NCBI GenBank assembly: GCA_965223295.1
Contig: CBDCWC010000003.1
Coordinates: 256,001-320,000, forward strand
From: Nitrospirales bacterium
GTDB lineage: Bacteria; Nitrospirota; Nitrospiria; Nitrospirales; UBA8639
Length of the DNA stretch: 64,000 bases
Reading direction: 5' to 3'
In this document: positions 5,938 through 46,682 of the stretch, piece after piece
Position numbering within the stretch: position 1 is the first letter of the stretch
How the letters are laid out: every line of letters starts with the position of its first letter
Notes under the pieces: model-generated
What the model saw: only the letters and a program-made list of their open reading frames with translations
Told to the model about the DNA's origin: nothing
The model's database searches: none
Position numbers and translations under genes: made by a program

Positions 5938-6078
5938 AATAATCAGCTACAATTTACAGGCCTTTATCATAGTTCAATAGATCTGTTCTCAGTAAGGAAT
6001 GGAGATTCTCAAACATTACTTACCTACACACTTGAGGACTCTTTTACAAGTTCCTTTGTTCTTCATGAAAAAAACAAT

Positions 6079-14194: not shown

Positions 14195-15520
14195 GGGCCT
14201 GTAAGATTAAGTGTGTAACTGGTTATCATAACGGATTTTTCAGAAGGAGAACATGATGACCAAGCCAAACACAAAAACCGATGCGTTATTGGATGACTTA
14301 TTAAAAGACTGTGAGTCGCCCGAAGATATTCTGGGGGAACATGGCCTTTTGAAGGATTTAACCAAACGGCTCGTGGAACGGGCGTTGACAGCTGAATTGA
14401 CGAATCATCTGGGCTATCCCCCTTATGCCCGAGGCCTTTCTCAGGGTGGGAACACTCGGAATGGGACGAGCTCGAAAATCATTCAAACGGACCAAGGGCC
14501 GGTCGAACTGGCCGTCCCCCGAGATCGTGCGGGCACGTTTGAACCCACGGTTGTCCCAAAACGGCAACGGCGCTTGGAGGGGTTTGACGACAAAGTGCTG
14601 GCCCTCTATGCCCATGGGTTGACCACGCGGGAAATTCAAAGTCATCTGGAAGACTTGTATGGAACTGAAGTCTCGCCCACACTGATTTCGACGATCGCCG
14701 ATGCCGTCTTAGAAGATGTGCGGCTCTGGCAGAGTCGGCCTTTGGAGATGGTGTATCCCATCCTGTATTTCGATTGCCTATTTGTGAAATCGCGGCATGA
14801 GGGGGCCGTCAAAACCAAAGCCGTGTATGTCGCCCTCGGCGTGACACTCACGGGAGAGAAGGAACTGCTCGGGCTCTGGGTCAGTGAAACCGAAGGAGCC
14901 AAGTTTTGGTTAGCGGTGTTCACGGAATTGCAACAGCGAGGCGTACAGGATTGCTTTGTCGCTTGTGTCGATGGGCTGATCGGGTTACCCGAAGCCTTAG
15001 AAACCATCTTTCCCCAGACACAGGTGCAACTCTGCATTGTCCATAAAGTGCGCCACGCTTTACGGTACGTGGTCTGGAAAGAACGTCGCCCTGTTGCCCG
15101 CGATTTACGAGCGATCTATGGAGCGCCCACTCTTTCAGAAGCCGAAGACGCCTTGGAGAACTTTGCTCAACTGTGGGATCAAAAATATCCCACCATTAGT
15201 GCCAGTTGGCGACGAGACTGGAAGCGACTGACGGTGTTCTTCGACTATCCGTCCGAGATTCGGAAAGTGATCTATACCACGAACGCGATTGAATCGCTCA
15301 ATTATTCATTGCGGAAGGTGCTAAAAAAAACGGGGGGCGTTTCCGACGGATGAAGCCATTCTCAAAGTCCTCTATCTCGGAATGCAGCGGATTGCCAAAA
15401 AATGGACCGTACCCATTCCCGAGTGGAAACGCGCCCTCAATCAATTTGCCATGATTGTTGGAGACCGCGTGCCCATAATTGATTAACCACGATCAGTTAC
15501 ACAGATAACTTGACAGGCCC
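14195..15520 (+). mobile_element. Nested IS256-family element (1326 bp)
   Basis: IRs GGGCCTGTAAGATTAAGTGTGTAACTG / CAGTTACACAGATAACTTGACAGGCCC; 8-bp target duplication CGCGAAGT (14187-14194 and 15521-15528). Confidence 0.95.
14253..15486 (+). pseudogene. IS256 transposase with +1 frameshift in an A8 run near 15323-15330
   Basis: PRDRAGTFEP, YPILYFD, QLCIVH, IYTTNAIESLN. Removing one A restores RGAFPTDEAILKVLYL...VPIID* ending at 15486. Confidence 0.88.
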
Positions 15521-22233: not shown

Positions 22234-25200
22234 TCAAGGCACAGGATTATTCCTAAAGTAATCAACAGAAGCCGTAAAAGCTGGGGACTGAGTTGGATGG
22301 TTCCCCACATGTAGTCCTACTTCCGTTACAGCTAAATTATATATAAAGGAAGTTGCGGCAACCCAACTTTGCCCGTCGTCTGAATAGTCTAACGTCCACA
22401 GATCACCATTTCGATTCACCCTCAAGTAAAGTGGTGCGGTCAATGCCACGGACGTACTAGTTTTTACTGAAGCACTACTTCCACTCGCAATCGTAGCGGC
22501 AAAAATCTTCACATTCGTTCCATCATGATGAACCTCATATCGAAGCAACCTTTCATCAGTCTCTTGCACCACCAGCCCTTGAATTTCATAGCGAGTTGTC
22601 ACAGGCGAGTCAAACTTCGCCTCGATTTCAAAATCCGTGTTGCTGGCCCCTTGCAGAAGCCGGGGAGCATACATTTGTCCGGGCCAGAGATTGTGGGAAC
22701 TTCCTCCAGGAACTGCGACTTCCAGATGGGTACCTGTGAGCGCAAACGATGAATCATCAGACAATGGAGCACCTTCTAAGGGGTCAAAAAACCGCCAAAA
22801 GGAATTCAATGTCGTCGACGTAAACTCGTCCGAAAGAATAGTTGGTGTGTCCACAGCAATCATCACTTCATCAAAGGTACTTAACGCCGTATCGTCGGCT
22901 GTTAACCGCAGCACATACACCCCTGCCTGCGTAAAGCTCGCCGTCGTATCCACGGCCGTCGCATCCCCAAACGTCACCACGCCCGGCCCGCTCGTCATAC
23001 TCCACACCGTGGTCAAGGTCGGAGGCGTCGGGAGCCCATCATCTGCCACCGTCCCATCCAACGTCGCCACGTTCGGCAACGTCACCGCCTGGTCCGCCCC
23101 CGCAGCCACCGTCGGCGCTTGGTTCGTCGCGGCCACCGTCACTGTCAGCTCATCAAAGGTACTTAACGCCGTATCGTCGGCTGTTAACCGCAGCACATAC
23201 ACCCCTGCCTGCGTAAAGCTCGCCGTCGTATCCACGGCCGTCGCATCCCCAAACGTCACCACGCCCGGCCCGCTCGTCATACTCCACACCGTGGTCAAGG
23301 TCGGAGGCGTCGGGAGCCCATCATCTGCCACCGTCCCATCCAACGTCGCCACGTTCGGCAACGTCACCGCCTGGTCCGCCCCCGCAGCCACCGTCGGCGC
23401 TTGGTTCGTCGCGGCCACCGTCACTGTCAGCTCATCAAAGGTACTTAACGCCGTATCGTCGGCTGTTAACCGCAGCACATACACCCCTGCCTGCGTAAAG
23501 CTCGCCGTCGTATCCACGGCCGTCGCATCCCCAAACGTCACCACGCCCGGCCCGCTCGTCATACTCCACACCGTGGTCAAGGTCGGAGGCGTCGGGAGCC
23601 CATCATCTGCCACCGTCCCATCCAACGTCGCCACGTTCGGCAACGTCACCGCCTGGTCCGCCCCCGCAGCCACCGTCGGCGCTTGGTTCGTCGCGGCCAC
23701 CGTCACTGTCAGCTCATCAAAGGTACTTAACGCCGTATCGTCGGCTGTTAACCGCAGCACATACACCCCTGCCTGCGTAAAGCTCGCCGTCGTATCCACG
23801 GCCGTCGCATCCCCAAACGTCACCACGCCCGGCCCGCTCGTCATACTCCACACCGTGGTCAAGGTCGGAGGCGTCGGGAGCCCATCATCTGCCACCGTCC
23901 CATCCAACGTCGCCACGTTCGGCAACGTCACCGCCTGGTCCGCCCCCGCAGCCACCGTCGGCGCTTGGTTCGTGCTAGAGGCAGTATTTCTGAAATAATC
24001 GACCGAAGCCGTAAAAGCTGGGGACTGCGAAGGGTCAGCATGATGGTTCCCAGAAAAAATACCTACTCGGTTCACAACCATTGTGTGACTAAAGGAAGTG
24101 GCTGTTGTCCAACTCTGCCCATCATCTGAATAGTCGAGCGTCCACAGATCTCCAGACCGATTTACCCGTAGATAGTACGGTGCAGTCAACGCCACAGAAG
24201 CATTAGTTTTAATAGATGCATTCCCTCCATTGGTGATCGTAGTGGCAAAAATTCGGGCAGTTGATCCATTATGGTAGACATCGTAACGAATAAGCGTCTG
24301 ATTGGTTTCTTGTACCACTAACCCTTGAATTTGAAACCGTTCATTTACACTTGAGTCAAATTTTGCTTCGATTTCAAAATTCATATTGCTGGCATTTTGC
24401 AAAAGCCGAGGAGCAAAAAGATTAGGCGGGTATAGATCATGCGAAGATCCTCCCGGAACTGCAATCTCTAAGTGATCGCCTGTGAGGTTGAACGACGAAT
24501 CATCTGCAGACGACCCTCCAGCCAAGGGATCATAGAAACTCCAAAACGAATTCAGCGTAGGAGATGAGAATTCATCAGATTGAATTGCCGAACCGACGAT
24601 GATGTTCATTGTTGCTTCGTTAGACGTATCACCCTCCGTGTCAGCTATCGTATACGTAAAACTGTCAGATCCGATAAATCCAGTATTCGGGGTATAAGTA
24701 ATTTCTCCAGTTGTTGGATTTATGATCGTCGCCCCATTCTTTGTTCCACGAATCACTGTCACGGTAGCAGGATCTAAAGTCTGTCCATTAGCATCATCAT
24801 TGCTTAATACGTTCAACACTACTGGAGTATCACTGACTGTGGCGCCTGAATCATCGAAGGCTGCAGGAGTATCCCCGATAGCAATGAAATTTGTGGCTCC
24901 AAAGGTTACATTAGCCCTATAGGCAACGAAAAGAAGAGAGCCTATAGGTTGAGGAGGGTTATTCAATGCCTGAATAAGAGAACCAGAACTTTCTGGTTGC
25001 CCATCTTCCCACACTTTTAATGTATACAACACTCCCCCTGTGACAGCCTGTGTACGTGATCGGAAGTTATAGGTTACACCTGGAACTAAGGTGAACCCGC
25101 TATCATCGACCGCTAGACGAATCTCGCTAGTTCCTATCCAATTCGAAATTTCAAGCCGCTCTGGGCCGACGGCAGGACGCACACGATACCATGCCAACGC

Positions 25201-27432
25201 TCCCATCGGAGCACCAGTAAGTGGTTGGTTTGTAACTGAAGATTCGGTGGAGTGCCCTCTCCATCCATGCGCTAACCCAACCGCCGCGCTATTGGTGTGG
25301 GTAAAGTTTGTGATCGTGATCTGTGTCTCAACTTCATAGTTTTCCCAACTCGACATATCACCAATAGCAAGAAGACGATCGTAGCCAGGTTCGATAATGC
25401 GCACCGAATCTGCCTGGGCTGAATCTATACGCCATTTTCCATCCACGACTTGTGCTAAATTGAGTATCTCACTCGTGGTCGTTGCCTGTGTCCAATCGAT
25501 TGAATAGGGTAATGGCCACGTCACTCCAGGACTATAATTGACAGAAACATTCTTGGTGGTCACTTCCGAGTCCTGATCTATAGCCGTAAGTTTTACTGTG
25601 TTGTTACCCACTACAAAATCATCGGCATCAATGTCCGCGTTAAAATCCCCAGTTTCTTGAAGTCGAAAACCATCACTCCCAATAGAAAGGGGAACGGAGG
25701 GTCCACCATTTAGAGAATAGGTTAGTGCCAGCGAGGAGGTGGGACCATTTGGATCCGAAACATTACCCACAATATTTATCCATTCCTGAGCCCGTCCAAC
25801 GTGACCAAAATTCTGATTCGTAGAATGCCAAACATCTATAATAGGAGCTGTGCTACTCGTTGCTGTGACCATAACCGTCACAGTGGCCACATTTGACGTA
25901 TCTCCGTCTGTATCATCCACCGTATACGTAAAAACATCCATCCCGACAAAGCCCAGGTTAGGTGTATAAGAAACGGCTCCAGTCGTTTGATTAACAACTG
26001 TCGATCCATTCGGCGGATCACTTGCCACTACTGTGGTTACATCAATCGTCTGACCGTTAGCTTGATCATTAGCGAGCACCACAAAATTTCCCACTGGCGT
26101 GTCTTGTGAAGTACTTATTCCATCATCGACCGCAATAGGAGCCGCCATATTACTTGAAACCGTTGCAGTCACTGTCGCCGCATTCGAAGTATCCCCGTCG
26201 GTATCGTCCACCGTATATGTAAAGACATCTGTTCCAACAAAGCCTACATCAGGAGTATAGGTTATGGTGCCCGTAGAGACATTCACGACTGCCGTACCAT
26301 TGACTGGATCGCTTGCCGCCACCGTCGTCACATTAATGGTCTGCCCATTAAGTTGATCATTATTTAACACCGCCACCTCAACCCCTAGTGTGTCTTGCTG
26401 GGTGTTGACCGTATCATCTACGGCGATGGGAGCGGCCGAACTATTAGTTACTGTGACCGTAACCGTTGCAGCATTCGATGTGTCTCCCTCAGTATCATCT
26501 ACAATGTAAGTAAAAGAATCGACTCCTACAAAACCCACATCAGGGGTGTAAGTAAGATTTCCCGTAGTGGCATTTACGTCAACCGTTCCATTAGGCGGAT
26601 CATTTGCCACCACGGTCGTCACATCAATGGTCTGCCCATTAGCATTATCATTAGCTAGAACATCTATCTCCTCCGGAGTATCCTGTTGAGTAGCGACCGA
26701 GTCATCAACGGCAATGGGAGAGACCAAGCCCGTATTCCGAAAATAATCGACTGAAGCCGTGAAGGCTGGGGATTGCGTGGGATGATTGCCTGTATGTATC
26801 CCAACCTCAGTAACGATAAGATTATGTGTGAAGGAAGTTGCCGTCACCCAGCTTTGCCCATCGCCTGAGTAATCAAGAGTCCAGACACTGCCACTTCGAT
26901 TTACCCGAAGATAGTACGGCGCAGGCAAGGATATGGGAGCGTTGGTTTTTATAGAGGCACTGCTGCCATTTGTGATCGTCGCGGCAAAGATTTTGACGTT
27001 TGCCCCATCGTGGTGAATCTCATACCGAAGCAAGGTTTCATCGGTTTCTTGTACGACCACTCCCTGAATTTCGTATCTGGTTGTCACTGGAGAATCAAAT
27101 TTGGCTTCGATCTCTAAATCAGTATCACTCGCCGCTTGGAGGACCCGTGGAGCCCACATCTGCCCGGGCCAGAGATTATGCGAACTTCCCCCTGGCACCG
27201 CGATTTCCAGATGAGTACCTGAGAGTGCAAACGACGAATCATCAGACGACGGAGCATTAGCTAGAGGATCGTAAAACCGCCAAAAGGAGTTTAGCGTTGG
27301 CGATGTAAATTCATCGGAGAGTATAATATTGCCAGCTGCTCCGCTGAATGACAGCTGTACAATAATAGAAACGAAACAAAGTAACAGCAGACCTGACCAT
27401 AAGAAAAAACTGTGTCCTGCATGTTTAGACAT
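22234..27432 (-). CDS. Giant secreted multidomain protein: 3 ConA/DUF1349-like lectin domains, 4 Ig-like (Big_9-type) repeats, 4 identical PKD-like repeats
   Basis: Signal-like N-terminus; three SDEF...FTASVDYFRN domains; AVDD...FTY.VDD..GDTSN repeats; NQAPTVAAGADQ...LRLTADD repeats. Confidence 0.88.
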   Translation of the reverse strand: MSKHAGHSFFLWSGLLLLCFVSIIVQLSFSGAAGNIILSDEFTSPTLNSFWRFYDPLANAPSSDDSSFALSGTHLEIAVPGGSSHNLWPGQMWAPRVLQAASDTDLEIEAKFDSPVTTRYEIQGVVVQETDETLLRYEIHHDGANVKIFAATITNGSSASIKTNAPISLPAPYYLRVNRSGSVWTLDYSGDGQSWVTATSFTHNLIVTEVGIHTGNHPTQSPAFTASVDYFRNTGLVSPIAVDDSVATQQDTPEEIDVLANDNANGQTIDVTTVVANDPPNGTVDVNATTGNLTYTPDVGFVGVDSFTYIVDDTEGDTSNAATVTVTVTNSSAAPIAVDDTVNTQQDTLGVEVAVLNNDQLNGQTINVTTVAASDPVNGTAVVNVSTGTITYTPDVGFVGTDVFTYTVDDTDGDTSNAATVTATVSSNMAAPIAVDDGISTSQDTPVGNFVVLANDQANGQTIDVTTVVASDPPNGSTVVNQTTGAVSYTPNLGFVGMDVFTYTVDDTDGDTSNVATVTVMVTATSSTAPIIDVWHSTNQNFGHVGRAQEWINIVGNVSDPNGPTSSLALTYSLNGGPSVPLSIGSDGFRLQETGDFNADIDADDFVVGNNTVKLTAIDQDSEVTTKNVSVNYSPGVTWPLPYSIDWTQATTTSEILNLAQVVDGKWRIDSAQADSVRIIEPGYDRLLAIGDMSSWENYEVETQITITNFTHTNSAAVGLAHGWRGHSTESSVTNQPLTGAPMGALAWYRVRPAVGPERLEISNWIGTSEIRLAVDDSGFTLVPGVTYNFRSRTQAVTGGVLYTLKVWEDGQPESSGSLIQALNNPPQPIGSLLFVAYRANVTFGATNFIAIGDTPAAFDDSGATVSDTPVVLNVLSNDDANGQTLDPATVTVIRGTKNGATIINPTTGEITYTPNTGFIGSDSFTYTIADTEGDTSNEATMNIIVGSAIQSDEFSSPTLNSFWSFYDPLAGGSSADDSSFNLTGDHLEIAVPGGSSHDLYPPNLFAPRLLQNASNMNFEIEAKFDSSVNERFQIQGLVVQETNQTLIRYDVYHNGSTARIFATTITNGGNASIKTNASVALTAPYYLRVNRSGDLWTLDYSDDGQSWTTATSFSHTMVVNRVGIFSGNHHADPSQSPAFTASVDYFRNTASSTNQAPTVAAGADQAVTLPNVATLDGTVADDGLPTPPTLTTVWSMTSGPGVVTFGDATAVDTTASFTQAGVYVLRLTADDTALSTFDELTVTVAATNQAPTVAAGADQAVTLPNVATLDGTVADDGLPTPPTLTTVWSMTSGPGVVTFGDATAVDTTASFTQAGVYVLRLTADDTALSTFDELTVTVAATNQAPTVAAGADQAVTLPNVATLDGTVADDGLPTPPTLTTVWSMTSGPGVVTFGDATAVDTTASFTQAGVYVLRLTADDTALSTFDELTVTVAATNQAPTVAAGADQAVTLPNVATLDGTVADDGLPTPPTLTTVWSMTSGPGVVTFGDATAVDTTASFTQAGVYVLRLTADDTALSTFDEVMIAVDTPTILSDEFTSTTLNSFWRFFDPLEGAPLSDDSSFALTGTHLEVAVPGGSSHNLWPGQMYAPRLLQGASNTDFEIEAKFDSPVTTRYEIQGLVVQETDERLLRYEVHHDGTNVKIFAATIASGSSASVKTSTSVALTAPLYLRVNRNGDLWTLDYSDDGQSWVAATSFIYNLAVTEVGLHVGNHPTQSPAFTASVDYFRNNPVP
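22868..23973. repeat. Tandem repeat, 282-bp unit x ~3.9, apparently identical copies
   Basis: TCATCAAAGGTACTTAACGCC recurs at 22868, 23150, 23432 and 23714 (period 282 bp = 94 aa). Confidence 0.97.
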
Positions 27433-28300: not shown

Positions 28301-29452
28301 ATGTTTTTGCCATTTCACGTCCCTGATATTGGGGACGAAGAAATCTGTTCGGTTGTTGAAACCCTCCGTTCTGGTTGGTTAACCACAGGATCAAAGGTCA
28401 AGCAGTTTGAGAGAGAATTTGCTGAACAGCTAGGAGTGAGCAATGCCGTGGCAGTCAATTCTTGCACAGCTGCTTTACATCTTGCCTTAGAAGCTATAGG
28501 CCTCAGCGAAGGAGACGAAGTCATCATTCCAACAATGACGTTCGCTGCAACGGCAGAGGTCGTACACTATTTTAAAGCCAAACCCGTGTTGGTGGATTGT
28601 CGAAAAGACACGCTTAATCTGAATGTTGAGCTAATTGAACGCGCAATAACCCCTAAGACCAAAGCGATTATCCCAGTTCATTTTGCTGGGCAACCCTGTG
28701 CCATGGATCAAATCCTGGCCATAGCTCATTCTCACCACCTTAAAGTCATTGAAGATGCTGCCCATGCCCTTCCCGCCAGGTATCAAGGAAAAAGGGTTGG
28801 AACCTTAGGAGATATCACCTGCTTTTCTTTTTATGCCACAAAAACGATGACCACAGGAGAAGGTGGCATGGCTACCACTGAGAATCCGGAATGGGCTCAA
28901 CGGATGCGCATGTTGAGTCTTCACGGCATTTCACAGGATGCATGGAAACGCTACACCCCAGGAGGTTCTTGGTATTACGAAATCCGCCACCCTGGGTACA
29001 AATATAATCTAACCGATATTGCCGCAGCCTTGGGTATTCCACAACTCCGGAAATGCAACGAATTTAAGAGCACTCGGCAGCATATCGCCTCCCTCTACAA
29101 TGAGGGATTCAGTCGGGTACCTGAAATCACAACGCCGCATGTGGACAAAAACATCGACCATGCCTGGCACCTGTATGTCATTCAGTTGAATCTCGAACAA
29201 TTGAGAATCGGGCGAAATGAATTTATGGATCAATTAAAGAAACATGGAATAGGGACCAGCGTTCACTTCATTCCCTTACATCTTCATCCTTATTATCGAG
29301 ATACCTTTGGCTATTTGCCAGAAAACTTTCCCGAAGCCAGCGCAGTGTTCGAACGTATTCTTTCTCTCCCGATCTACCCTAAAATGAGTGACGAAGATGT
29401 TCGCCATGTCATTCAAACAGTTTCTACCCTCATTAAAGAGTATCGCCGATGA
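28301..29452 (+). CDS. DegT/DnrJ/EryC1/StrS sugar aminotransferase
   Basis: SGWLTTG, NSCTAALHLAL, IEDAAHA, FSFYATKTMTTGEGGM (PLP lysine). Alternative GTG start at 28286. Confidence 0.95.
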   Translation: MFLPFHVPDIGDEEICSVVETLRSGWLTTGSKVKQFEREFAEQLGVSNAVAVNSCTAALHLALEAIGLSEGDEVIIPTMTFAATAEVVHYFKAKPVLVDCRKDTLNLNVELIERAITPKTKAIIPVHFAGQPCAMDQILAIAHSHHLKVIEDAAHALPARYQGKRVGTLGDITCFSFYATKTMTTGEGGMATTENPEWAQRMRMLSLHGISQDAWKRYTPGGSWYYEIRHPGYKYNLTDIAAALGIPQLRKCNEFKSTRQHIASLYNEGFSRVPEITTPHVDKNIDHAWHLYVIQLNLEQLRIGRNEFMDQLKKHGIGTSVHFIPLHLHPYYRDTFGYLPENFPEASAVFERILSLPIYPKMSDEDVRHVIQTVSTLIKEYRR

Positions 29453-32400
29453 TGAAACGTGCTTTTGATATACTTGCAGCAGGTTTAGGACTTATCCTAG
29501 GTGCACCTATATTTCTTCTCCTCGCTTTCCTCGTCAAAATTGATTCACCGGGGCCTGTGTTCTTCAAACAAATTCGGGTTGGACAAGGTTTTCGGCATTT
29601 TTCTATTTTAAAATTTCGCACCATGCACGCGAATGTCTCAAAGGAAGGTGGAGAACTCACAATCGGACAAGATCCACGGATCACAGGGCTCGGAAAAGTC
29701 TTACGTCAGCTTAAGCTTGACGAACTTCCACAACTTTTGAATGTCATAAGGGGCGAGATGAGTCTCGTGGGGCCGAGACCCGAAGTTCCCCAATACGTTG
29801 ACCAGTTTCGTGAAGACTATGCGGAAATTTTAGAGGTTCGCCCAGGCTTAGTGGACCTTGCTTCCCTTAAGTATATTGATGAACAGATGATACTCGGAAA
29901 TGCCATAAATCCTGAAGAGGAATATCTCAAGACGATTCTCCCGGACAAAATCCGATTGGCTAAGTTATACGTTGCGCATTCCTCCTTTCTCATCGACGTA
30001 ACAATTATTCTGCAGACCTTACTTAAAATCGTTGGGATTCAAACCAACCTCTTAGTTGACAGTACGCAAAAAGACCGGGAAGAAATCTTCGTTCTACCGA
30101 ACTCTTCCATTCGTACTCATATTTTAAAGCATCGACATAAACTTGTCGTGACATTGGATTTAGGGCTTATCATATTAGCTAACTATATGGCTTTCTGGTT
30201 GAGATTTGATGGGCATATTCCATCAGAGATAAGCCACATGTTTTTCCAACTCTTCCCTATTCTCCTTCTGGTTAGAGGAGTTTCTTTTTCCTTATTTCGA
30301 TTGAACGAAGGACTTTGGCGGTATATCGGACTTTGGGATGTCAAAAACATCATTTGGGGAGTCCTTTCCGGAACCATTGTATATTTTCTTATTGTTCATT
30401 TCGGACTCGGATTTACTGAGTACCCTCGATCAGTGTTTGTCATTGACAGTATGTTATTGATCAGCCTTCTTGTTGGCATTCGACTCGTGGTCCGTCTATT
30501 TCGGATAGACAGAACCTCTAAACGCTCAAAACGTGTCTTGATTATCGGAGCAGGAAATACCGGAGAAAAAATTGTTCGAGAAATGCAAGAACATCCATCA
30601 TGTGCCTATTCACCAATTGGATTTCTTGACGATGATCCGTTGAAATTAGGACAGAGAATTCATGGAGTGAAAGTCCTTAGCACGTTAAAAGACCTTCCCA
30701 GAATTCTGGAGCTAGAAAATCCTGCAGAAATCTTAGTAGCGTTATCCCAATCAAATACCAATACTATCCGAAGCATCGTGAGTACCTTGGAGCCTTATAA
30801 GATTCCAATCAAAACCCTGCCAAAATTAGAAGACATTCTCAATGGAAAAGTCACAATTGGCCAAATCAGAGACTTAAAAATCGAAGACTTGCTCCAACGT
30901 CCCCCCGTGGGTATTGCGCGACAGATCCTTCCCCATTTTATCAAGGGCCGGCGAATCATGGTTACTGGTGCGGGAGGCTCTATTGGTTCGGAACTGTGCC
31001 GTCAGATTGTGTCATATAGCCCCGAAGCACTCATTCTGTATGAACGACATGAGAATAGTCTCTATCAGATTGCAAGTGAGCTGACCGACAGTGGACATTC
31101 TACCATCACACATGAGGTTTTAGGCGACATCACTGATTCTCTTCATCTCAAGGAAACGATGCAGAAGCATAAACCTCATGTCGTTTTCCATGCAGCAGCA
31201 CATAAGCACGTCCCGTTAATGGAATCGAATCCCTGCGAAGCCTTTAAAAATAATATCCTTGGAACCCACCGCGTCGCAAAAGCCGCCCAACAAGCTGGAG
31301 TAGAACGATTTGTCTTGATTTCGACAGACAAGGCTGTGAATCCCACCAGCGTGATGGGAGCCACAAAGCGAGGAGCCGAATTGGTCGTGAGAAGCTTGGC
31401 TCAAACAAGCCAAACGTGCTTTTTGACTGTCCGATTTGGAAATGTACTAGGGAGCAACGGAAGCGTGGTGCCAAGATTTCAGAAACAAATTCGTGCAGGC
31501 GGACCGGTAACCGTGACACACCCCGACGTTCGTCGGTACTTCATGTCAATTCCCGAAGCCGTTGAATTGGTACTACAAACCTCAACACTCAGTGAGCAAG
31601 GAGCTCTTTACGTATTAGATATGGGTCAACAAATAAAGCTGTTAGATTTGGCACGCCACCTCATTCGTCTCTCTGGATTTCTCCCTGAAAAGGAAATTCC
31701 TATCCAGTTTGTGGGTCTTCGACAAGGAGAAAAGCTAGAAGAAGAGCTAGTAGGAACTGGCGAAAAAACAGACCGTTCCCCAATAGAGAAAATTTTCCAA
31801 ATAAAATCTGAAACTTCTCAAGACTTCACATTACTCAATCAGGTACTCGAAACCTTTAAAAATGTAAGCTTTTTGAACTCTCCATCGTTCGTGATACATC
31901 AATTGCAACAACTTGTTCCAACATTTTTACACTCTGAGAATGACAGGGTAGTTGAAAACTGGGAACCCTGCATAGAAAATGTTCACAACGATTCGAAAAC
32001 AATTCTCGTTGTCGACGATGATGAATCTGGACGAAGAGCTATACGGGCTCTCCTGGAAAATGAAGGATATACATGTCTTGAGGCAGAACACGGAGGCAAG
32101 GCATTGGATCTTCTGGGCCAGGCTCAGGTGGACCTGGTCATCACCGACAATAGAATGCCTGTCTTAACTGGATTAGACTTTCTTGAACAGCTGTCAAAAT
32201 CAGCACCCTCTAAGCTGCTTCCAGTGGTTGTTTTTAGTGGCAATTTAGGCCCACAGGATAAGGAGAGAGCGTTCAAAGCTGGTGCCTGCGCGGTTCTCGA
32301 CAAACCTCATGGTGTGGTAAAATTAGTGCCAAAGATCAATCAAATCTTTACTCAACAGAGTACAAGTAGCAGGGAAAGAGTCATGCCTCACGTCAACTAG
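29449..32400 (+). CDS. Fusion: phosphoglycosyl transferase + UDP-HexNAc 4,6-dehydratase (CapD/PglF type) + C-terminal receiver domain
   Basis: KRAFD...KFRTM...LDELPQLLNV.RGEMSLVGPRPE; 4 TMs; GAGGSIGSE, HAAAHKHVP, ISTDKAVNP, RFGNVLGS; ILVVDDD...VITDNRMP...FSG...DKP. Confidence 0.93.
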   Translation: MMKRAFDILAAGLGLILGAPIFLLLAFLVKIDSPGPVFFKQIRVGQGFRHFSILKFRTMHANVSKEGGELTIGQDPRITGLGKVLRQLKLDELPQLLNVIRGEMSLVGPRPEVPQYVDQFREDYAEILEVRPGLVDLASLKYIDEQMILGNAINPEEEYLKTILPDKIRLAKLYVAHSSFLIDVTIILQTLLKIVGIQTNLLVDSTQKDREEIFVLPNSSIRTHILKHRHKLVVTLDLGLIILANYMAFWLRFDGHIPSEISHMFFQLFPILLLVRGVSFSLFRLNEGLWRYIGLWDVKNIIWGVLSGTIVYFLIVHFGLGFTEYPRSVFVIDSMLLISLLVGIRLVVRLFRIDRTSKRSKRVLIIGAGNTGEKIVREMQEHPSCAYSPIGFLDDDPLKLGQRIHGVKVLSTLKDLPRILELENPAEILVALSQSNTNTIRSIVSTLEPYKIPIKTLPKLEDILNGKVTIGQIRDLKIEDLLQRPPVGIARQILPHFIKGRRIMVTGAGGSIGSELCRQIVSYSPEALILYERHENSLYQIASELTDSGHSTITHEVLGDITDSLHLKETMQKHKPHVVFHAAAHKHVPLMESNPCEAFKNNILGTHRVAKAAQQAGVERFVLISTDKAVNPTSVMGATKRGAELVVRSLAQTSQTCFLTVRFGNVLGSNGSVVPRFQKQIRAGGPVTVTHPDVRRYFMSIPEAVELVLQTSTLSEQGALYVLDMGQQIKLLDLARHLIRLSGFLPEKEIPIQFVGLRQGEKLEEELVGTGEKTDRSPIEKIFQIKSETSQDFTLLNQVLETFKNVSFLNSPSFVIHQLQQLVPTFLHSENDRVVENWEPCIENVHNDSKTILVVDDDESGRRAIRALLENEGYTCLEAEHGGKALDLLGQAQVDLVITDNRMPVLTGLDFLEQLSKSAPSKLLPVVVFSGNLGPQDKERAFKAGACAVLDKPHGVVKLVPKINQIFTQQSTSSRERVMPHVN

Positions 32401-33159: not shown

Positions 33160-33163
33160 GGCC

Positions 33164-34357
33164 ATGATGAGAATAGGAGCTTTTCAGATGACATCGTCCC
33201 GCCCAAGACATTTCTCAATGATAGTGGGAACTTCGCACCGAACGTACCGGTGGCTCGTATTCATATCTTTTATGATTTTACCCCAGATGGACATCGCAGA
33301 ACTTCAAGCGATTGCTCAGACTTTACCTCAATCAGAAATTGAAGGCTCTTTGAGCCAGGAAAGTTTGGATGAAGCAGCGAATCAAACCTACTCCATCATG
33401 CAACAACAGCTTCAGGCGTATCAGAAACGGTTAGAAGCCTCTGAACGTCGGCTACAGGACTTCAAACAAATACATGGCATCATTTCGCTTGAAACTCAAA
33501 TCAATCTTCTTCTTCAGCAACGTAATGCGCTAGATGACTCGTTTAAAATAGAACAGAATCGCGCTCAGGGCCTTCGAGAAAAGTTGGCTTGGGTACAAGA
33601 TAGAATTAGCCAGGTGCCTAAAGAAATTCCCTTGTCGAGTGTTTTGAGCTCCGAACAAGGAATTATAGGCCAGGCCAAAAATAATTTACTTACACTTCAA
33701 CTGCAGGAACAAGAACTCCTAAATAAATATACTGAAAAAAACCCCCATGTCCAATCGCTTCGAAAAGAAATGGAATTAGTTTCTCAGTTTATCGAGGAAC
33801 AAGAGGCCAACTTGGCGGGAAGCGTGACGACAGGAAAGAACCCGTTGTATCAGGAAATGGAAATGCAGCTCTTTCATACTCAGGCTGATCTGGTTTCGGC
33901 CAAAGCTCAAAGTCAAGTCATTGCTCAACAAATTTCTGAAATTGATAAAAAACTTGAGGAGCTTCGAAGCTTAGAAGTTGAATTTGAGGAATTGAGCCGC
34001 CAGGTTAAAGCCGATGAAAGAAATTACTTGAATTATCTCACCAAAGTTGGAACGACCCCTCCGCAAGATTACCAGATTCAGGTTGGGGATCATCTTGACA
34101 TTAAATTCTTTTTCAACCCTGAACTAAATGAATCTGTTTTGGTGAGACCCGATGGCCGAATTGCCTTGCAATTAGTAGGTGAATTTCCTGTCGTTGGACA
34201 TACAGTTAAAGAATTACGAGAAATCCTGATGAAGAATTATTCAACCCAACTCAAGAACCCCGAAGTTGCGGTATTACTTCGGTCCTCGAATGTTCCAGGA
34301 GACAGTGTAGGAGCAATCGAGGCTGAACCCCGCTCAGAGAATCACAATGGACGATGA
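33164..34357 (+). CDS. Chimeric protein: Wzc/GumC-like coiled coil + C-terminal Wza Poly_export domain
   Basis: Central region parallels 34347..35831 (QLQAYQKRL/QLQSYEKKL; VTTGKNPLYQ/VTSGKNPIFQ). C-terminus parallels Wza (KFFFNPELNE...VRPDG...QLKNPE). Start uncertain. Confidence 0.85.
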   Translation: MMRIGAFQMTSSRPRHFSMIVGTSHRTYRWLVFISFMILPQMDIAELQAIAQTLPQSEIEGSLSQESLDEAANQTYSIMQQQLQAYQKRLEASERRLQDFKQIHGIISLETQINLLLQQRNALDDSFKIEQNRAQGLREKLAWVQDRISQVPKEIPLSSVLSSEQGIIGQAKNNLLTLQLQEQELLNKYTEKNPHVQSLRKEMELVSQFIEEQEANLAGSVTTGKNPLYQEMEMQLFHTQADLVSAKAQSQVIAQQISEIDKKLEELRSLEVEFEELSRQVKADERNYLNYLTKVGTTPPQDYQIQVGDHLDIKFFFNPELNESVLVRPDGRIALQLVGEFPVVGHTVKELREILMKNYSTQLKNPEVAVLLRSSNVPGDSVGAIEAEPRSENHNGR

Positions 34358-35834: not shown

Positions 35835-37313
35835 ATGTACCTATCTTTTTATGGGCTTCAAAAAGAACCATTTCATACCACACCCGATCCCCACTTTCTT
35901 TTTTTAAGTCCCAGCCATAAAGAAGCTCTTGGCACAATTATTTATGGTATAGAAAAAAAGAAAGGATTTGTGGCGATACTTGGGGAAGTCGGTGTCGGCA
36001 AAACAACTATTCTGCGAGCTTATCTTGAAGGTAAGCGTCAGAACAAACACAAAACGGTATATATATTCAACCCAGTACTGACGTATCAGGAACTTCTGAA
36101 GTCCATACTACGCGGGCTGGATCTAGTTCCAACTCATAGTGATCTCAGTGAAATGATCAACCAACTCCATGAAGCACTCATCATGGAATATCGCTCCAAC
36201 AGTACTGTGGTCGTCGTCATCGACGAAGCTCAAAACATCCCTATAGATACGCTGGAAAACCTTCGAATGCTCTCTAACCTTGAAACCTCAACCGATAAAC
36301 TTATTCAATTTATCTTAATTGGCCAGCCCGAACTTGAAGCACTACTCAACCAACCAAGGTTGCGTCAGCTTCAACAACGAATAGCCATTCAAGCAACAAT
36401 TACCACTCTGACGCTCAAAGAAAGTCAAGATTACATCAAACATCGCATTGCAAGAGCTTCAACTGGTGAACCACGGGTATTTTCCAAGGGGGCCATACAG
36501 CTTATTTGTAAGCATGCACAAGGAGTTCCACGACGCATTAATATGATTTGCGATAATTCACTTAGCACTGGATTTGGGTATCAGGAAAAACCTGTGACAA
36601 CTAAAGTCGTGAAAGAGATCATTGGTGATGGAAGCACACCCGGGTCCTTTCGTCCGTTTAAATGGGTAGCTGCCATCGCGGCTGGCGCCATTTTGTTCTC
36701 AGGATTTTTTATTTGGAAAAACTATCCTCTTAAGGAGAATTTTGACATCTTATCTATTTTCTCAGATAGATCATCCGCCTCAAACACTCAGGTGATGGCA
36801 CAAAAGATATCCGCAGAGACTACTGGGTCAGTCATCGAGCAGGTAAGAGATATGAACGAAAACGAAACCCTCTTAGAGGCTTCCCCACCTCAAGCTTTCA
36901 ATGATATTTCCGAAAAATCTTTATTGCAGAGTTCCTCCTTAAACAAAACGCAATCTCCAGGGAAAGAGATTCAAAAAACAATCGCTAAGGACGACAAAAA
37001 AGTTCCTGTGGCACTAGAAGAAACAGTTCCTAGTACTATCTTTCCTAAACAACAACCACCTGATAAAACTCAGACCGGACCTAACACCATGATCCTTAGC
37101 CAATCAAAGTCTTTTCCGAGGCAAGATTCGACCTCTCCTAGAGTGCGGTCAGTGAATAGCGGAGAAAGCCTCAGCCAAATCACCAAGGAAGTGTATGGCT
37201 CATTTGCTCCGGAGCATCTTTCATGGATCACACAACATAATCCAGACATAGTTGACCCAGATCTTATCCATGTTGGACAGCAATTGGTACTCCCGGATTT
37301 TTCCAAGGAGTAA
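35835..37313 (+). CDS. ExeA/GspA-type AAA ATPase with TM helix and C-terminal LysM domain
   Basis: MYLSFYGL..EPF..TPDP, GEVGVGKTT, VIDEAQN, LIGQPEL, GVPRRIN; VNSGESLSQI...NPDIVDPDLIHVGQQLVLP. Confidence 0.9.
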   Translation: MYLSFYGLQKEPFHTTPDPHFLFLSPSHKEALGTIIYGIEKKKGFVAILGEVGVGKTTILRAYLEGKRQNKHKTVYIFNPVLTYQELLKSILRGLDLVPTHSDLSEMINQLHEALIMEYRSNSTVVVVIDEAQNIPIDTLENLRMLSNLETSTDKLIQFILIGQPELEALLNQPRLRQLQQRIAIQATITTLTLKESQDYIKHRIARASTGEPRVFSKGAIQLICKHAQGVPRRINMICDNSLSTGFGYQEKPVTTKVVKEIIGDGSTPGSFRPFKWVAAIAAGAILFSGFFIWKNYPLKENFDILSIFSDRSSASNTQVMAQKISAETTGSVIEQVRDMNENETLLEASPPQAFNDISEKSLLQSSSLNKTQSPGKEIQKTIAKDDKKVPVALEETVPSTIFPKQQPPDKTQTGPNTMILSQSKSFPRQDSTSPRVRSVNSGESLSQITKEVYGSFAPEHLSWITQHNPDIVDPDLIHVGQQLVLPDFSKE

Positions 37314-37322
37314 TGTGATTCA

Positions 37323-38081
37323 ATGAGTAAAATTTACGACGCTCTGCAAATTGCATACGGCGAACGACTCATTACTGAGAACGGATCAAAGGCTGCACCA
37401 GCTGTCAGCTCGTCTGCTCTTCTAAAAATAGACAGCCCATTTTCTATTTCTCGGCAGTACAAGGAGGCAGAACTTCTAGGGCTTGCCCAACATATTGCAG
37501 CCCGACTAGGGGATCCAAAGAAAAATGTCATTCAATTCATTGGCACTCAAAAAGGGGAAGGAACTTCTACGCTGGTCCGAGAGTTCGCTATGGTTTTAGC
37601 TCAACATAGCACCAAACCAATATTGCTGGTTGAAGCTGATTTAATCCAACCTTCACAGTATCAGGCCTTTGGCATTGATCCCAAACCGCCATTAGAGAAT
37701 CTTTTTGAAGAGGGAAAAGCTCTTGAAGGAGTGGTATCTCAAATTGAGGAATCAAATCTCTATGTTGCAACTCTCTCATCGAAAGTGCAGTCCGCTCTTA
37801 CGGGACAAACCAAGAGTCATGGGAAGACAATGTGGGATAGGGTTCGGGACGAATTTGGACTAATCTTAATTGACTCGTCTCCAGCTCGTGTTACCCCAGA
37901 TAGCCTGGCACTTTGCAATACCGTCGACGGAATTGTTTTCGTGTTGCAAGCTGAAAAAACTCGCTCGACTGTTGCCAATAGTGTCAAGGAACAGATTTTT
38001 ATGCGTGGCGGGAATATATTGGGGCTCGTTCTGACCAAGCTCAAGTTTCACATCCCCGAAGGTATTTACAAGTTACTTTAG
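37323..38081 (+). CDS. CpsD/CapB-like BY-kinase homologue, probably a pseudokinase
   Basis: MSKIYDAL; Walker A GEGTST (Lys>Thr), A' LLVEAD, B ILIDSSP; no Tyr-rich tail. Confidence 0.85.
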   Translation: MSKIYDALQIAYGERLITENGSKAAPAVSSSALLKIDSPFSISRQYKEAELLGLAQHIAARLGDPKKNVIQFIGTQKGEGTSTLVREFAMVLAQHSTKPILLVEADLIQPSQYQAFGIDPKPPLENLFEEGKALEGVVSQIEESNLYVATLSSKVQSALTGQTKSHGKTMWDRVRDEFGLILIDSSPARVTPDSLALCNTVDGIVFVLQAEKTRSTVANSVKEQIFMRGGNILGLVLTKLKFHIPEGIYKLL

Positions 38082-38311: not shown

Positions 38312-39673
38312 TCAAAGCGCTCCTTGAAGAGACACCATAATAGAGTTGGCATAGAAATCAAATTGGTTAACGTTGGAAAACCGTCTCTGGAAAATGTATT
38401 CTAGCCGAAACCCTAACCATTTCACAGTTCGGTAATCCAATCCTAGTCTGCTAGTTATCTGATTATCGCGTCTATCTGACCTAAGTCCACTATTTGATTG
38501 ATCGTTAAACTTATTGTTGACAAATCTCATTCCACCTCTCAATGCAGCACGTTTTCCCATCTGTTGTGTCGCTAGAAGAGAAGCTCCGGTTTGTGTGATG
38601 ACAGAACTTGAAAACACACCAGATTGACGATTTCCCCGAAAAGCACCAAGGTTCATATTGAACCTCGAAGTAGGATTCCAATTAAGGTTTCCTTGCATAA
38701 AGAATATATCGTTCCCCTGCCCACCATCACTAAAACGCGAACCCGCTGGCTGAGTGATCGGGGCATGATCAAAATTTAGAACTTGGTACCCAGCACGAAA
38801 TTCTCCTGAAAGCCGACTGGTCGCAGCTAACCGCACGCCTGTACTGATCGTATACGAGAAGCTGTCCAACTGGTTATTTTCTTCAAAATCATTGTCATTG
38901 ATTTCGAAACTTAACAACGGAGCAATCTTTGGAGAAACAGGAACAAAAAAGGTCGCATCTGCTCCCGTTGATCGTAGATCTCGAATGGGCGCCTGGTTAT
39001 TATTTTCATAGTTCCATTTCGTGAAAAAAAACCTAAATCTAAATCCTATTTGAGATCCCAGTTTCTCCACTTGCCCAACGAAGGAATCCGTATTCCATGT
39101 CGTCAGATCTCTTTGTTGAAGGTCAAATTCAGAACCTCTCTGATCAAATCCCTCAATATGACCGCCTTTTAACTTGACTTTTAACCCGACAGGAAAATCT
39201 AAATTTAATTGACCCATAACTTCTTGGCTCAAAGCATTATTTTCTGAGAAACGTTGAAAATACTGTTGACTCGCGCGATAGTCAGCCATCAGCTGATGCC
39301 GCCCACCAAAAGGAAGAATGGCTTGAAGTCCAGGAGAAATGTTATAAATAAAATCACTACGTCTTCTTTTGTCAATTCTAAAAATATTATCTGAATAGAT
39401 TACTGCCCCACCCAAAAATGGATGCAGTATTACCGGACCTGCCCTTAAGCCCGTTCCAGGAAAATTTCTGAGAAAAGAAATCTGGTGAAATGGTGCAGCA
39501 CCTCCAGTGAATGCATATGAAGCTTGGGAAACTTGCGCCCAGCACCTTTCAGAGGGTTCTATGAAAGAAAATCCTAGATAGAGACAAAAAACATATACCC
39601 AACATCTCCTTGACCGCAGCCAGGTTGATCCACCTCTGACTAATATTTCGCTGGACTGAGATTTATGCCCCAT
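38312..39673 (-). CDS. EPS-associated outer-membrane beta-barrel protein
   Basis: Signal region; GP..LHP......YSDNIF; amphipathic Asn/Gln/Phe/Tyr-rich strands; C-terminal strand NSIMVSLQGAL. Confidence 0.8.
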   Translation of the reverse strand: MGHKSQSSEILVRGGSTWLRSRRCWVYVFCLYLGFSFIEPSERCWAQVSQASYAFTGGAAPFHQISFLRNFPGTGLRAGPVILHPFLGGAVIYSDNIFRIDKRRRSDFIYNISPGLQAILPFGGRHQLMADYRASQQYFQRFSENNALSQEVMGQLNLDFPVGLKVKLKGGHIEGFDQRGSEFDLQQRDLTTWNTDSFVGQVEKLGSQIGFRFRFFFTKWNYENNNQAPIRDLRSTGADATFFVPVSPKIAPLLSFEINDNDFEENNQLDSFSYTISTGVRLAATSRLSGEFRAGYQVLNFDHAPITQPAGSRFSDGGQGNDIFFMQGNLNWNPTSRFNMNLGAFRGNRQSGVFSSSVITQTGASLLATQQMGKRAALRGGMRFVNNKFNDQSNSGLRSDRRDNQITSRLGLDYRTVKWLGFRLEYIFQRRFSNVNQFDFYANSIMVSLQGAL

Positions 39674-40227: not shown

Positions 40228-41373
40228 TTACGATTGATTCATTCGTACCACCATATGACTTCGACGATTTTCTTGAAAGCAATTCTCATTGGAATCCTGA
40301 CAGGCAGGTCGTTCTTTGCCATAGGACACGATTTTAATTCGATGTCTCTGCACGCCCAAATTCACTAAATATTCTCGGGCTGCTTCTGCTCGTTTTTTCC
40401 CAAGCACAAGATTGTAATCTTGCGTTCCTCGTTGATCACAATGACCCTCAATCGTTAAGGCTTTCGTAGGATTCGCATGCAGCCATTGGGCACCTTCCTC
40501 CAGATAGCGTGCGGCCTCATTGGAAATACTCCAACTGTCAAACCCAAAGTATATATCATGCACACGACCTCCAGATCCACTGCTAGAGTTACTGGTGCCA
40601 AAAGGTTCTATCTCTGACTCCCTCATCCGCATCGAACCGGAGTCTCTATTATCATTGGCTTGGGCAATGTTCGAATCGGGATTAACATATTCTGGCGACG
40701 GTCCGCCGTTTTCCCGCAGATAAGCTTGAGCCCACGATTCTGGATTAGATTCCATGGCAGAAGCCGAGCTATCACTAAATCCATCCACAGCGCCGTAATT
40801 GGGCCCACTTCCTGGGACTCCCGAATAATCATGCCCATAGTTTGAACGGCTTCCAATTCCACTTCCGTTGGAATCGCCGTTTGATGAGGGATCTCCATAA
40901 AACTCTTGACTGCTCTCGCCTCCTCGCAGATACGCATTCGCCCAGGCTTCGGGATCTGGATTGCTTGACGCTGCTGACCCACTTCCAAAGCCGGTGACTG
41001 GACCATGGTTAGGACCGGAACCATTCACCCCACCATATTGCTGTCCATAATCGGAGCCACTCCCTGGTTCTGATGAAGCTCCCCCATTCATATCTGAGTC
41101 CCCATCTCCACTATTTGACAAATTCGGTGACAATCCCTGACCTGTTCCAGAGTACGGACGACTGCCGTTCACTCTGCCCCCCTGCATCGTTGTGCCATCA
41201 GCGTTGCGAACCATTCTATCGGCAGTCCCATTCATTTCCTCTTCGCTAGAGATCATCTCATCGCCCTCTGAATTTGCTCCATATTCTAGGGAATGCCCAC
41301 TACACCCTGAGACCATAAAAGCCCCAAACACGATAGCAAGAAAAAGCCTATTGTTGGTTTGACTCACGCCCAT
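40228..41373 (-). CDS. Pal/OmpA-domain lipoprotein with long Gly/Ser-rich repeat linker
   Basis: Lipobox VSGC; DIYFGFDS, IEGHCDQRGTQDYNLVLGKKRA, SYGKERP, ENRR. Confidence 0.9.
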   Translation of the reverse strand: MGVSQTNNRLFLAIVFGAFMVSGCSGHSLEYGANSEGDEMISSEEEMNGTADRMVRNADGTTMQGGRVNGSRPYSGTGQGLSPNLSNSGDGDSDMNGGASSEPGSGSDYGQQYGGVNGSGPNHGPVTGFGSGSAASSNPDPEAWANAYLRGGESSQEFYGDPSSNGDSNGSGIGSRSNYGHDYSGVPGSGPNYGAVDGFSDSSASAMESNPESWAQAYLRENGGPSPEYVNPDSNIAQANDNRDSGSMRMRESEIEPFGTSNSSSGSGGRVHDIYFGFDSWSISNEAARYLEEGAQWLHANPTKALTIEGHCDQRGTQDYNLVLGKKRAEAAREYLVNLGVQRHRIKIVSYGKERPACQDSNENCFQENRRSHMVVRMNQS

Positions 41374-46366: not shown

Positions 46367-46682
46367 ATATCTACTCCCTTCCCTGAATAAAACATTTTTC
46401 ACGACATGAAAAATCTGACTTCGGAAAATCCCACAAGTTTCCTTAGGTATTTTTTTATTTTGACAGACTCGTTCTCTTAAGACCAGAGTTCTTCTCTTCA
46501 TCAAGAGTGGAATTTTTCAGAAAGGCCCTCAATCGACCCTAGATATCAATAATTCTTGAAGTGGTCAATTGACAGCTCGAAGAATCCATCATTATAGTCT
46601 TTTGACATTTTTCTTGCATACCATTCAAAGCTTTGACCCTACTTCGTTTAATCGTTTAACGGCTCACCAAAAGGTACTCCTC

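Follow-up and report, generated by a model that had tools for sequence, protein, structure and literature searches.

A hybrid gene between an export gene and a chain-length determinant gene

The window analysed here is a stretch of 64,000 nt from a Nitrospirales bacterium (GenBank assembly GCA_965223295.1, contig CBDCWC010000003.1, positions 256,001 to 320,000 of the forward strand). [quoted passage not shown] We refer to this gene and its product as the hybrid. Coordinates of the hybrid, of its parts and of the surrounding genes are collected in Table 1; residue numbers of the hybrid count from the ATG at 33188 unless a longer frame of 427 residues is stated.

Table 1 Position of the hybrid gene, its segments and the associated genes in the window
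Feature	Position	Strand	Details
Hybrid gene, likely start ATG	33188..34357	+	389 residues plus stop; AGGAG, Met of relatives
Probable Sec signal peptide, residues 1-43	33188..33316	+	basic n-region, hydrophobic core, small-x-small site
PCP-type helical arm, residues 57-286	33356..34045	+	BLASTP, hhalign, AlphaFold2, PslE profile match
Arm-tip motif K180-Y181-T182-E183	33725..33736	+	turn between helices 150-180 and 186-211
Single Poly_export domain (D1/PES), residues 291-366	34058..34285	+	FFFNPELNE 307-315, QLKNPE 354-359; Pfam, Foldseek
Variable C-terminal tail, residues 367-389	34286..34354	+	pLDDT < 50, dN/dS 0.34; in place of SLBB
Upstream OPX, Class-3-like lipoprotein, 229 residues	32470..33159	+	likely start Met at 32503
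Downstream PCP, chain-length determinant, 494 residues	34347..35831	+	no kinase domain
XrtA/PEP-CTERM-associated ATPase with C-terminal LysM-like region	35835..37313	+	TIGR03015 245.9 bits, cut-off 324.5
Separate tyrosine autokinase-like ATPase	37323..38081	+	TIGR01007 63.8 bits, TIGR03018 58.5 bits, both below cut-off
Outer-membrane beta-barrel	38312..39673	-	BBP2_2 105.4 bits, cut-off 23.7
PrsT, XrtA/PEP-CTERM TPR lipoprotein	44072..46504	-	TIGR02917 418.1 bits, cut-off 312.2

A first-pass annotation, made from the sequence alone, had described the middle of the hybrid as the coil of the downstream protein and its C-terminus as the export domain of the upstream one, and both halves of this description are borne out. 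BLASTP aligned the middle with the 494-residue downstream protein at 88 of 221 identical positions (40%; E = 2e-41) and the C-terminus with the 229-residue upstream protein at 43 of 73 (59%; E = 3e-24), while the quoted DNA match between 32692-32720 and 34103-34131 is exactly 27 of 29 nt identical in the alignment. In profile-profile comparisons, which used alignments of orthologues, hybrid residues 61-290 matched PCP residues 176-410 over 228 columns without large gaps (hhalign, probability 100%, E = 9.5e-51), and residues 289-376 matched OPX residues 60-152 (E = 2.2e-32). Residues 329-401 of the 427-residue frame matched Pfam Poly_export (PF02563) with 68.6 bits, the cut-off being 28, and no other family exceeded its cut-off in the Pfam scan of the hybrid.

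The hybrid is a complete member of neither parent family. As an OPX protein it has the D1 domain but neither SLBB domain nor outer-membrane anchor: SLBB and SLBB_2 were absent in Pfam at E ≤ 0.01, with 23 low-confidence residues following D1, Wza_C gave no Pfam match, the N-terminal 68 residues hold no cysteine, and no cysteine stands in a lipobox context in the hybrid's relatives. The XrtA export-protein model TIGR03027 was matched only over its positions 1-74 of 169. As a PCP it has the helical arm but neither the transmembrane pair nor the base domain nor a family-level score: GNVR and PF02706 (Wzz) gave no match, the second transmembrane helix is missing, the single hydrophobic segment is N-terminal, and the XrtA chain-length determinant model TIGR03007 was covered only over positions 137-377 of 498 (67.4 bits; cut-off 278.85). 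No curated NCBIfam model covers the hybrid.

The reading frame is open from 33074 to 34357 on the forward strand, its longest reading being 427 residues. An AGGAG at 33175-33179 lies 8 nt upstream of the ATG at 33188, and P0001, a relative of 390 residues and 96% identity, begins at the Met of 33188. This spacing and this start make the ATG at 33188 more likely than position 33164, where the first-pass annotation had begun the gene; its open frame and its end at 34357 stand, as do its reading of the frame as intact yet diverged and the composition and domain order it gave. The stop codon of the hybrid overlaps the start of the downstream PCP gene by 11 nt.

At the N-terminus, the putative signal site reads A-I-A in the window protein and mostly A/V/S-Y-A followed by D/E in its relatives, with the Ala at -1 at least 90% conserved (column A81 of alignment A2). 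In a heuristic scan, all 77 hybrid N-termini had a hydrophobic 12-mer, and in 59 of them a small-x-small site adjoined it. By these features the hybrid is probably a secreted, soluble periplasmic protein with a Sec-type signal.

An AlphaFold2 monomer model, run on an alignment of 78 hybrid sequences, had a mean predicted local distance difference test score (pLDDT) of 71.5 and a predicted template modelling score of 0.42. The arm is built of helices 57-96, 101-142, 150-180, 186-211 and 219-286 (pLDDT mostly 80-97), the longest of which has 68 residues and measures ~100 Å; a beta/alpha domain at 302-365 follows with pLDDT 62-75, and the tail is disordered. The turn at 181-185 forms the far end of the arm in the model, and helix 219-286 returns to a 9-residue linker and then to D1, which would therefore lie at the arm base, opposite the free tip. 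Foldseek superimposed the C-terminal domain on the D1 domains of Wza and WzaB (9n9a) at a root mean square deviation (rmsd) of 1.1-1.4 Å over 71-82 columns, and a profile search of the PDB matched D1 to Wza D1 (E ~1e-3) and the arm to residues 220-421 of PslE, the best solved relative of the arm (E = 7e-5).

The flanking genes had been named wza and wzc; going by domain content, the first strictly encodes an OPX lipoprotein of Class-3-like type and the second a PCP without kinase. The upstream protein matches PF02563 (68.7 bits) and SLBB_2 (50.9 bits) in Pfam, with no match to Wza_C, and TIGR03027 at 116.6 bits, under the cut-off of 180. Its lipobox Cys30 is invariant and its C-terminal F228/W229 conserved among 24 sequences, in agreement with the Class-3 pattern of WzaB as described in excerpts of PMC12819527 (Poly_export, one SLBB, lipobox Cys and a C-terminal aromatic pair). 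The downstream protein reaches 119.7 bits with TIGR03007, under the cut-off of 278.85, and matches the PslE profile at E = 4e-32. PrsT nearby and an XrtA gene on another contig of the genome (G000:C2:1310998-1311768; TIGR03109 221.7 bits, cut-off 208) identify the locus as the XrtA/PEP-CTERM exopolysaccharide type, and its remaining genes match XrtA-type NCBIfam models, all below cut-off. The beta-barrel gene is a candidate for the porin partner of the Class-3-like OPX.

Several other genes of the window were recorded alongside. Directly 5' of the OPX gene, 29449..32400 (+) encodes a protein of 983 residues in which an initiating sugar transferase is fused to a Polysacc_synt_2 dehydratase and to a response-regulator receiver; its Nitrospira marina counterpart is listed at 844 residues in an excerpt of PMC8115632. 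A 381-residue protein with a Pal/OmpA-type peptidoglycan-binding C-terminus (40228..41373, -) adjoins the beta-barrel gene. Further away lie a 1732-residue protein with tandem-95 repeats and a region like the myxosortase-dependent M36 peptidase (22234..27432, -) and an IS256-family transposase (14253..15353, +; 390.2 bits, cut-off 150).

Two related modules occur elsewhere in the genome. In its second OPX/PCP locus (L014, G000:C2:1405669-1406544), a tandem pair of OPX genes precedes a 797-residue PCP-kinase fusion. The two OPX frames (5388..5999 and 6036..6800 of that locus, -) are the only other Poly_export genes of the genome; one product has 254 residues and a non-lipobox signal, the other 203 residues and a lipobox. 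Both OPX-bearing loci of the genome thus encode two D1-bearing secreted proteins, and adjacent OPX pairs are also present in many relatives and in L050 and L064. In a second XrtA-type module (L013, G000:C2:1450000-1462000), a 711-residue ATPase that ends in LysM stands together with a kinase-like ATPase and a 492-residue PCP; no OPX is nearby, and an IS3-family transposase follows.

Distribution, selection and origin

Orthologues of the hybrid exist: an architecture search, as the first-pass annotation had proposed, found proteins with the arm and a C-terminal PF02563 in Nitrospirales loci. Of 4720 candidates from a search of 5.8 billion proteins, 258 matched at E ≤ 1e-3. PF02563 is present in every one of the 120 matches listed, whose lengths are 313-434 residues; those with a named source belong to Nitrospira or Nitrospirales and bear generic names only. 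Among 1.84 billion representatives, 5470 matched at E ≤ 1e-3; four near-full-length proteins among the 150 representatives listed span both parts (P0121, P0122, P0124 and P0125), the rest being fragments, PCPs and OPXs.

Species-representative genomes yielded 63 loci, 31 of which (L022-L052) hold a single frame with both parts. In all 31, wherever the contig reaches, the hybrid stands between an OPX and a PCP gene. The frame is interrupted by an in-frame stop in L032, cut at the end of a 1,030-base contig in L049 and cut at the contig start in L030 and L041. The other 32 loci hold no hybrid, and in the Geobacteraceae records the OPX gene is directly followed by the PCP gene. Full-span matches in Geobacteraceae, 'Patescibacteria' and Planctomycetota were rejected as adjacent OPX and PCP genes with no hybrid. 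Outside Nitrospirales the architecture was not found in the 63-locus set, except for L049, a hybrid fragment whose 1,030-base contig is labelled Chloroflexota; its arm is 63% identical to that of the window protein, and the label probably reflects a binning error and no transfer. The Atlas returned only the hybrid's own cluster at a score of at least 0.9.

At E ≤ 1e-50, the hybrid was present in 36 of 301 Nitrospirales genomes, all belonging to one family. Within its own genus 26 of 49 genomes had it, and in two other genera 5 of 7 and 4 of 4, with 0 of 38 in a sister genus and 0 of 160, 0 of 21 and 0 of 5 in three other Nitrospirales families at the same threshold. Its range among these 301 genomes is thus limited to three genera, all in the same Nitrospirales family. 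A second hybrid subfamily, 45-51% identical, occupies an OPX-hybrid-PCP locus of its own (L021/L052, G110, G134, G252 and G254), and some genomes carry both subfamilies, with a second copy of 47-51% identity in a locus of unchanged gene order.

The selection set left out L002-L012 and L021 (same contigs as L022-L052), L032 and L049, and the three genes were compared in the 27 genomes that hold OPX, hybrid and PCP. The hybrid proved to be under strong purifying selection, with an overall ratio of nonsynonymous to synonymous substitution rates (dN/dS, Nei-Gojobori) of 0.11-0.14. For 17 pairs with a hybrid dS of 0.02-0.5, dN/dS was 0.113 in the hybrid, 0.098 in the OPX and 0.138 in the PCP; for 32 pairs with dS 0.5-1.0, the respective values were 0.136, 0.124 and 0.154, and the median dN of the hybrid (0.092) was under half that of the PCP (0.211). 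By region (71 of 435 pairs, dS 0.02-1.0), dN/dS was 0.100 in the arm, 0.059 in D1 and 0.341 in the tail, and 0.573 in the N-terminal 60 residues (39 pairs computable). Across the same loci, identity to the window proteins was 59-70% for the hybrid, 54-58% for the OPX and 49-53% for the PCP.

Expression is indicated by a syntenic protein of 385 residues in Nitrospira marina, detected by proteomics. The excerpted table of that study (PMC8115632) lists seven consecutive genes for a perosamine-synthetase-like protein (385 residues), an EpsC-like protein (844), an SLBB protein (238), a 'Polysaccharide biosynthesis/export protein' (385), an exopolysaccharide (EPS) protein (492), a LysM protein (454) and an Mrp-type ATPase (258), which is the order of the genes in the window. 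In each of the six samples the 385-residue protein reached 46-58 spectral counts, and its mean normalized spectral abundance factor of ~0.099 compares with ~0.093 for the SLBB (OPX) protein and 0.065 for the 492-residue (PCP) protein, placing it near equimolarity with both. We infer that it is the hybrid orthologue, by gene order, size and name rather than by sequence. Public sequencing runs holding the DNA stretch number four, from one study and of unspecified kind; none is listed as RNA.

That the hybrid might be a relic of duplication without present function is extremely improbable. One in-frame stop in 3 of 40 matched places and the patchy occurrence within the genus (26 of 49 genomes) would suit a relic, but this reading is contradicted by dN/dS values of 0.06-0.14, by 37 of 40 intact frames and by the N. 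marina proteome, and the identity of the hybrid across loci exceeds that of its flanking genes. The hybrid is a real gene.

For its origin, the first-pass annotation had suggested tandem duplication followed by fusion. The topology fits: if OPX-PCP-OPX'-PCP' lost everything between the point where the first arm ends and the point where the second D1 begins, exactly OPX-[arm-D1]-PCP would remain. The present neighbours are not resolved as the donors by trees, which were built for the arm from 70 rows (quick IQ-TREE, midpoint root) and for D1 from 94 rows and 82 columns. The 30 hybrid arms form one clade (Shimodaira-Hasegawa-like approximate likelihood-ratio test, 98) nested among Nitrospirales PCP arms in a group of 64 rows (support 92), with the Geobacteraceae rows outside, and the fork joining the hybrid, adjacent-PCP and other PCP clades is unresolved. 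The hybrid D1 domains fall into a weak group (88) with XrtA-type OPX D1 domains of Nitrospirales and Geobacteraceae. Neither tree recovered a sister relationship between the hybrid and its neighbours. Together the trees indicate that the hybrid arose once from genes of this locus type, a PCP and an OPX, and that this happened long ago and not recently.

Predicted contact surfaces and a possible third tier

Contacts between PCP and OPX proteins have been located in relatives of both parents. Excerpts of PMC12881504 state that D99, E102 and Y155 of E. coli Wza meet K332-H338 of Wzc at the end of the helical arm and that deletion of Wza D1 abolishes co-localisation in E. coli. In P. aeruginosa, according to excerpts of PMC13434223, PslD D1 binds Met315, Thr317, Tyr318 and Asp320 of PslE, and the exchange Y318A weakens binding and reduces the production of Psl. 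HMMER alignment to PslE (9v75_A) places L178, K180, Y181 and E183 of the hybrid on M315, T317, Y318 and D320, the KYTE tip (K180-E183) corresponding to T317-Y318-T319-D320. At the other end, F309, E312 and Q354, within FFFNPELNE and GQLKNPE, align with D99, E102 and Y155 of Wza (HMMER), and the loop after the D1 helix (hybrid 353-359) has its counterpart in the Arg106-Arg107 loop of WzaB (PMC12819527, excerpt). The IPL and GKNP segments, considered as the arm tip, were rejected: the PslE alignment puts the tip at KYTE and makes them the elbow.

Across 78 hybrids, the mapped contact positions are invariant or at least 90% conserved, with K180 invariant and Y181 and E183 at least 90% conserved. 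The GQLKNPE segment is common to the hybrid and the adjacent OPX and varies in OPX proteins from loci that lack a hybrid; the Y-T-E tip is common to the hybrid and the adjacent PCP. As judged from homology, then, the hybrid retains two binding faces, that of a PCP for OPX and that of an OPX for PCP, at opposite ends of the predicted rod.

The proposal of the first-pass annotation, a periplasmic extender that lengthens the conduit across a wide periplasm, agrees with this geometry: D1 at the base, a free tip and the contact motifs of both partners. Its functional part we put at about an even chance. The hybrid would then be soluble and assemble into rings as both parents do, and its ring would be the third of the stack, lying between the tip of the PCP and D1 of the OPX and lengthening the conduit by roughly 12-15 nm. 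On the inner-membrane PCP, the ring of its D1 domains would rest on the arm tips in the way of an OPX; its own arm tips would fit, in the way of a PCP, into the D1 ring of the OPX anchored in the outer membrane. Three tiers would result, namely PCP, hybrid, and OPX with its beta-barrel porin. The figure of 12-15 nm is a very rough estimate from helix lengths and the dimensions of the PslE system, where PslE protrudes ~156 Å, Motif 3 measures ~120 Å and PslD ~74 Å in a periplasm of ~230 Å (PMC13434223, excerpt). We infer that the signal is cleaved, that rings form, that both contacts are made and that the hybrid is linked to a large periplasm; in its fixed place between OPX and PCP, its overlap, its low dN/dS and the near-equimolar abundance of the N. 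marina protein, the hybrid behaves as a structural part would. Extra D1 tiers also occur elsewhere, in the form of multi-D1 OPX proteins and of tandem OPX gene pairs in this genome and in relatives.

A rather unlikely alternative is an assembly factor or gate, of which only one of the two faces is engaged at any moment and which controls when a two-tier machine couples. Its D1 might cap the PCP tips and hold the octamer extended, or its tip might plug the OPX D1 ring until polymer is ready. PCP-OPX binding is described as micromolar and thought to be dynamic in excerpts of PMC12819527, and with the contact motifs of both partners kept, the hybrid could compete with them. A cap, however, needs one module only, yet arm and D1 are both constrained (dN/dS 0.10 and 0.059); the N. 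marina abundance, as excerpted, is near equimolar and not sub-stoichiometric; and the fixed position between structural genes, together with the translational overlap, suits a structural subunit.

Also unlikely, in our estimate, is a PCP paralogue tethered to the inner membrane by an uncleaved signal anchor, its arm lying beside or within the PCP ring in a mixed oligomer. D1 near the membrane would replace the lost base or second transmembrane element and modulate chain length or polymerase contact. Since homology to the PCP arm extends over its full length without large gaps, octamer-like packing side by side is conceivable; the hydrophobic core of the window protein is short, the stretch before A-I-A is long, and the heuristic found no clear cleavage site in 18 of 77 N-termini. 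The conserved Ala at -1 and the A/V/S-Y-A then D/E pattern of most relatives speak for cleavage instead, and the N-terminal 60 residues evolve nearly freely, as signal peptides and linkers do. D1 at the inner membrane would moreover have no known partner, and its retained PCP-contacting loops would go unexplained.

Several observations nevertheless weigh against an extending tier. The hybrid was not found in 265 of the 301 Nitrospirales genomes, including 23 of 49 of its own genus, the in-frame stops in 3 of 40 places have to be accommodated, and the second OPX/PCP locus of the same genome has no hybrid, though it has tandem OPX genes. Signal cleavage was read from a home-made heuristic that did not see the site in 18 of 77 N-termini, and at a pLDDT of only 62-75 for D1, the placement of D1 relative to the arm comes from chain topology alone. 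The PslD residues that contact PslE are not conserved among OPX proteins according to an excerpt of PMC13434223, so that mapping contacts by homology may mislead, and motifs common to paralogues may reflect ancestry and not common partners. As for the periplasm, excerpts of PMC3600790 attribute a large periplasmic space to a marine Nitrospira and to N. marina, and mention N. moscoviensis, which lies outside the marine group, alongside them for periplasmic enzyme particles. Given this mention and the patchy distribution of the hybrid, a wide periplasm alone does not predict its presence.

One extension of the third-tier reading may be considered, although it is quite unlikely: a stackable spacer with a PCP-type tip as plug and an OPX-type D1 as socket, whose rings could seat on one another as well as on PCP and OPX; if true, the conduit could have one, two or more extra tiers, matched to a varying periplasm width. 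More generally, and as part of this unlikely reading, D1-bearing tiers may be the usual means by which Nitrospira-like bacteria fit PCP/OPX machines to an unusually wide periplasm, with the hybrid, the tandem OPX genes of the second locus and the multi-D1 OPX proteins elsewhere as its forms.

In the first structures of whole trans-envelope conduits of Wzx/Wzy type, all from 2026 (Wza-Wzc, PslD-PslE and the WzaB work), there are two periplasmic tiers, whose summed length sets a spacing of ~23 nm. If the third-tier reading is true, a third component made from half of each partner would show that this machine is modular and can be lengthened. A soluble protein with both faces would also be a natural reagent for the recognition between PCP tip and OPX D1. 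Marine nitrite oxidisers form aggregates and biofilms that matter in nitrification, and even if the extender fails, the hybrid would still be a strongly constrained part, so far uncharacterised, of an export locus that is widespread.

Relation to known export components

In the literature searched we found no description of a protein with a PCP arm and a Poly_export domain, and the paper on OPX classes (PMC9603273) contains neither 'coiled' nor 'Nitrospir' nor a relevant 'fused'.

Among known proteins, Class-3 OPX proteins (WzaB of Myxococcus xanthus, 9n9a; PslD of P. aeruginosa) share the D1 fold with the hybrid (rmsd 1.1 Å over 71 columns), and the PCP-contacting D1 loops are kept in the hybrid too. 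Unlike them, the hybrid has no SLBB domain, lipobox Cys or C-terminal porin-binding aromatic pair, and its D1 is C-terminal, behind an arm of ~230 residues, whereas that of Class-3 OPX proteins is N-terminal. To the long-arm PCPs (PslE, 9v75/9v6l; TIGR03007; more distantly E. coli Wzc), the hybrid is homologous over the whole arm and tip, but it lacks their transmembrane helix pair, base (jellyroll/Wzz), GNVR and kinase.

Periplasmic adaptors of tripartite efflux and type I secretion, soluble or tethered helical hairpins that join an inner-membrane component to an outer-membrane channel, are a functional analogy only: the hybrid has neither lipoyl nor beta-barrel nor membrane-proximal domains flanking its arm, which is PCP-derived. 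No membrane-fusion protein family was among its Pfam or NCBIfam matches, and Foldseek gave a weak match to EmrA (E = 7.9e-3). A closer precedent is offered by the ExoF-type outer-membrane auxiliary (OMA)/OPX proteins of alpha-proteobacteria, whose helical region has homologues among membrane-fusion proteins (Xiao, Wang and Saier 2010, PMC2850547, excerpt): there, too, an OPX-family protein gained a long stretch of periplasmic alpha-helix from another envelope-spanning component. As far as that excerpt goes, the donor was a membrane-fusion protein and the helices lie inside a complete OPX, whereas the hybrid took its helices from a PCP, retains D1 only and is an extra gene beside an intact OPX and PCP.

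Other rearrangements of the same parts exist. Multi-D1 OPX proteins (P0127, P0129, P0137, P0139, P0144 and P0253) carry 2-5 tandem Poly_export domains before SLBB, and whole PCP-OPX fusions of 681-741 residues occur in both orders (P0136, P0150 and P0246), the latter predicted from gene calls and possible artefacts. Unlike the hybrid, both kinds keep SLBB and/or the membrane-proximal parts of the PCP; the form with an arm and a single D1 was seen only in the hybrid relatives P0124 and P0125 among 18 proteins scanned. The hybrid thus combines known domains, in a known machine, into a new third component, of a family that databases already hold under generic names.

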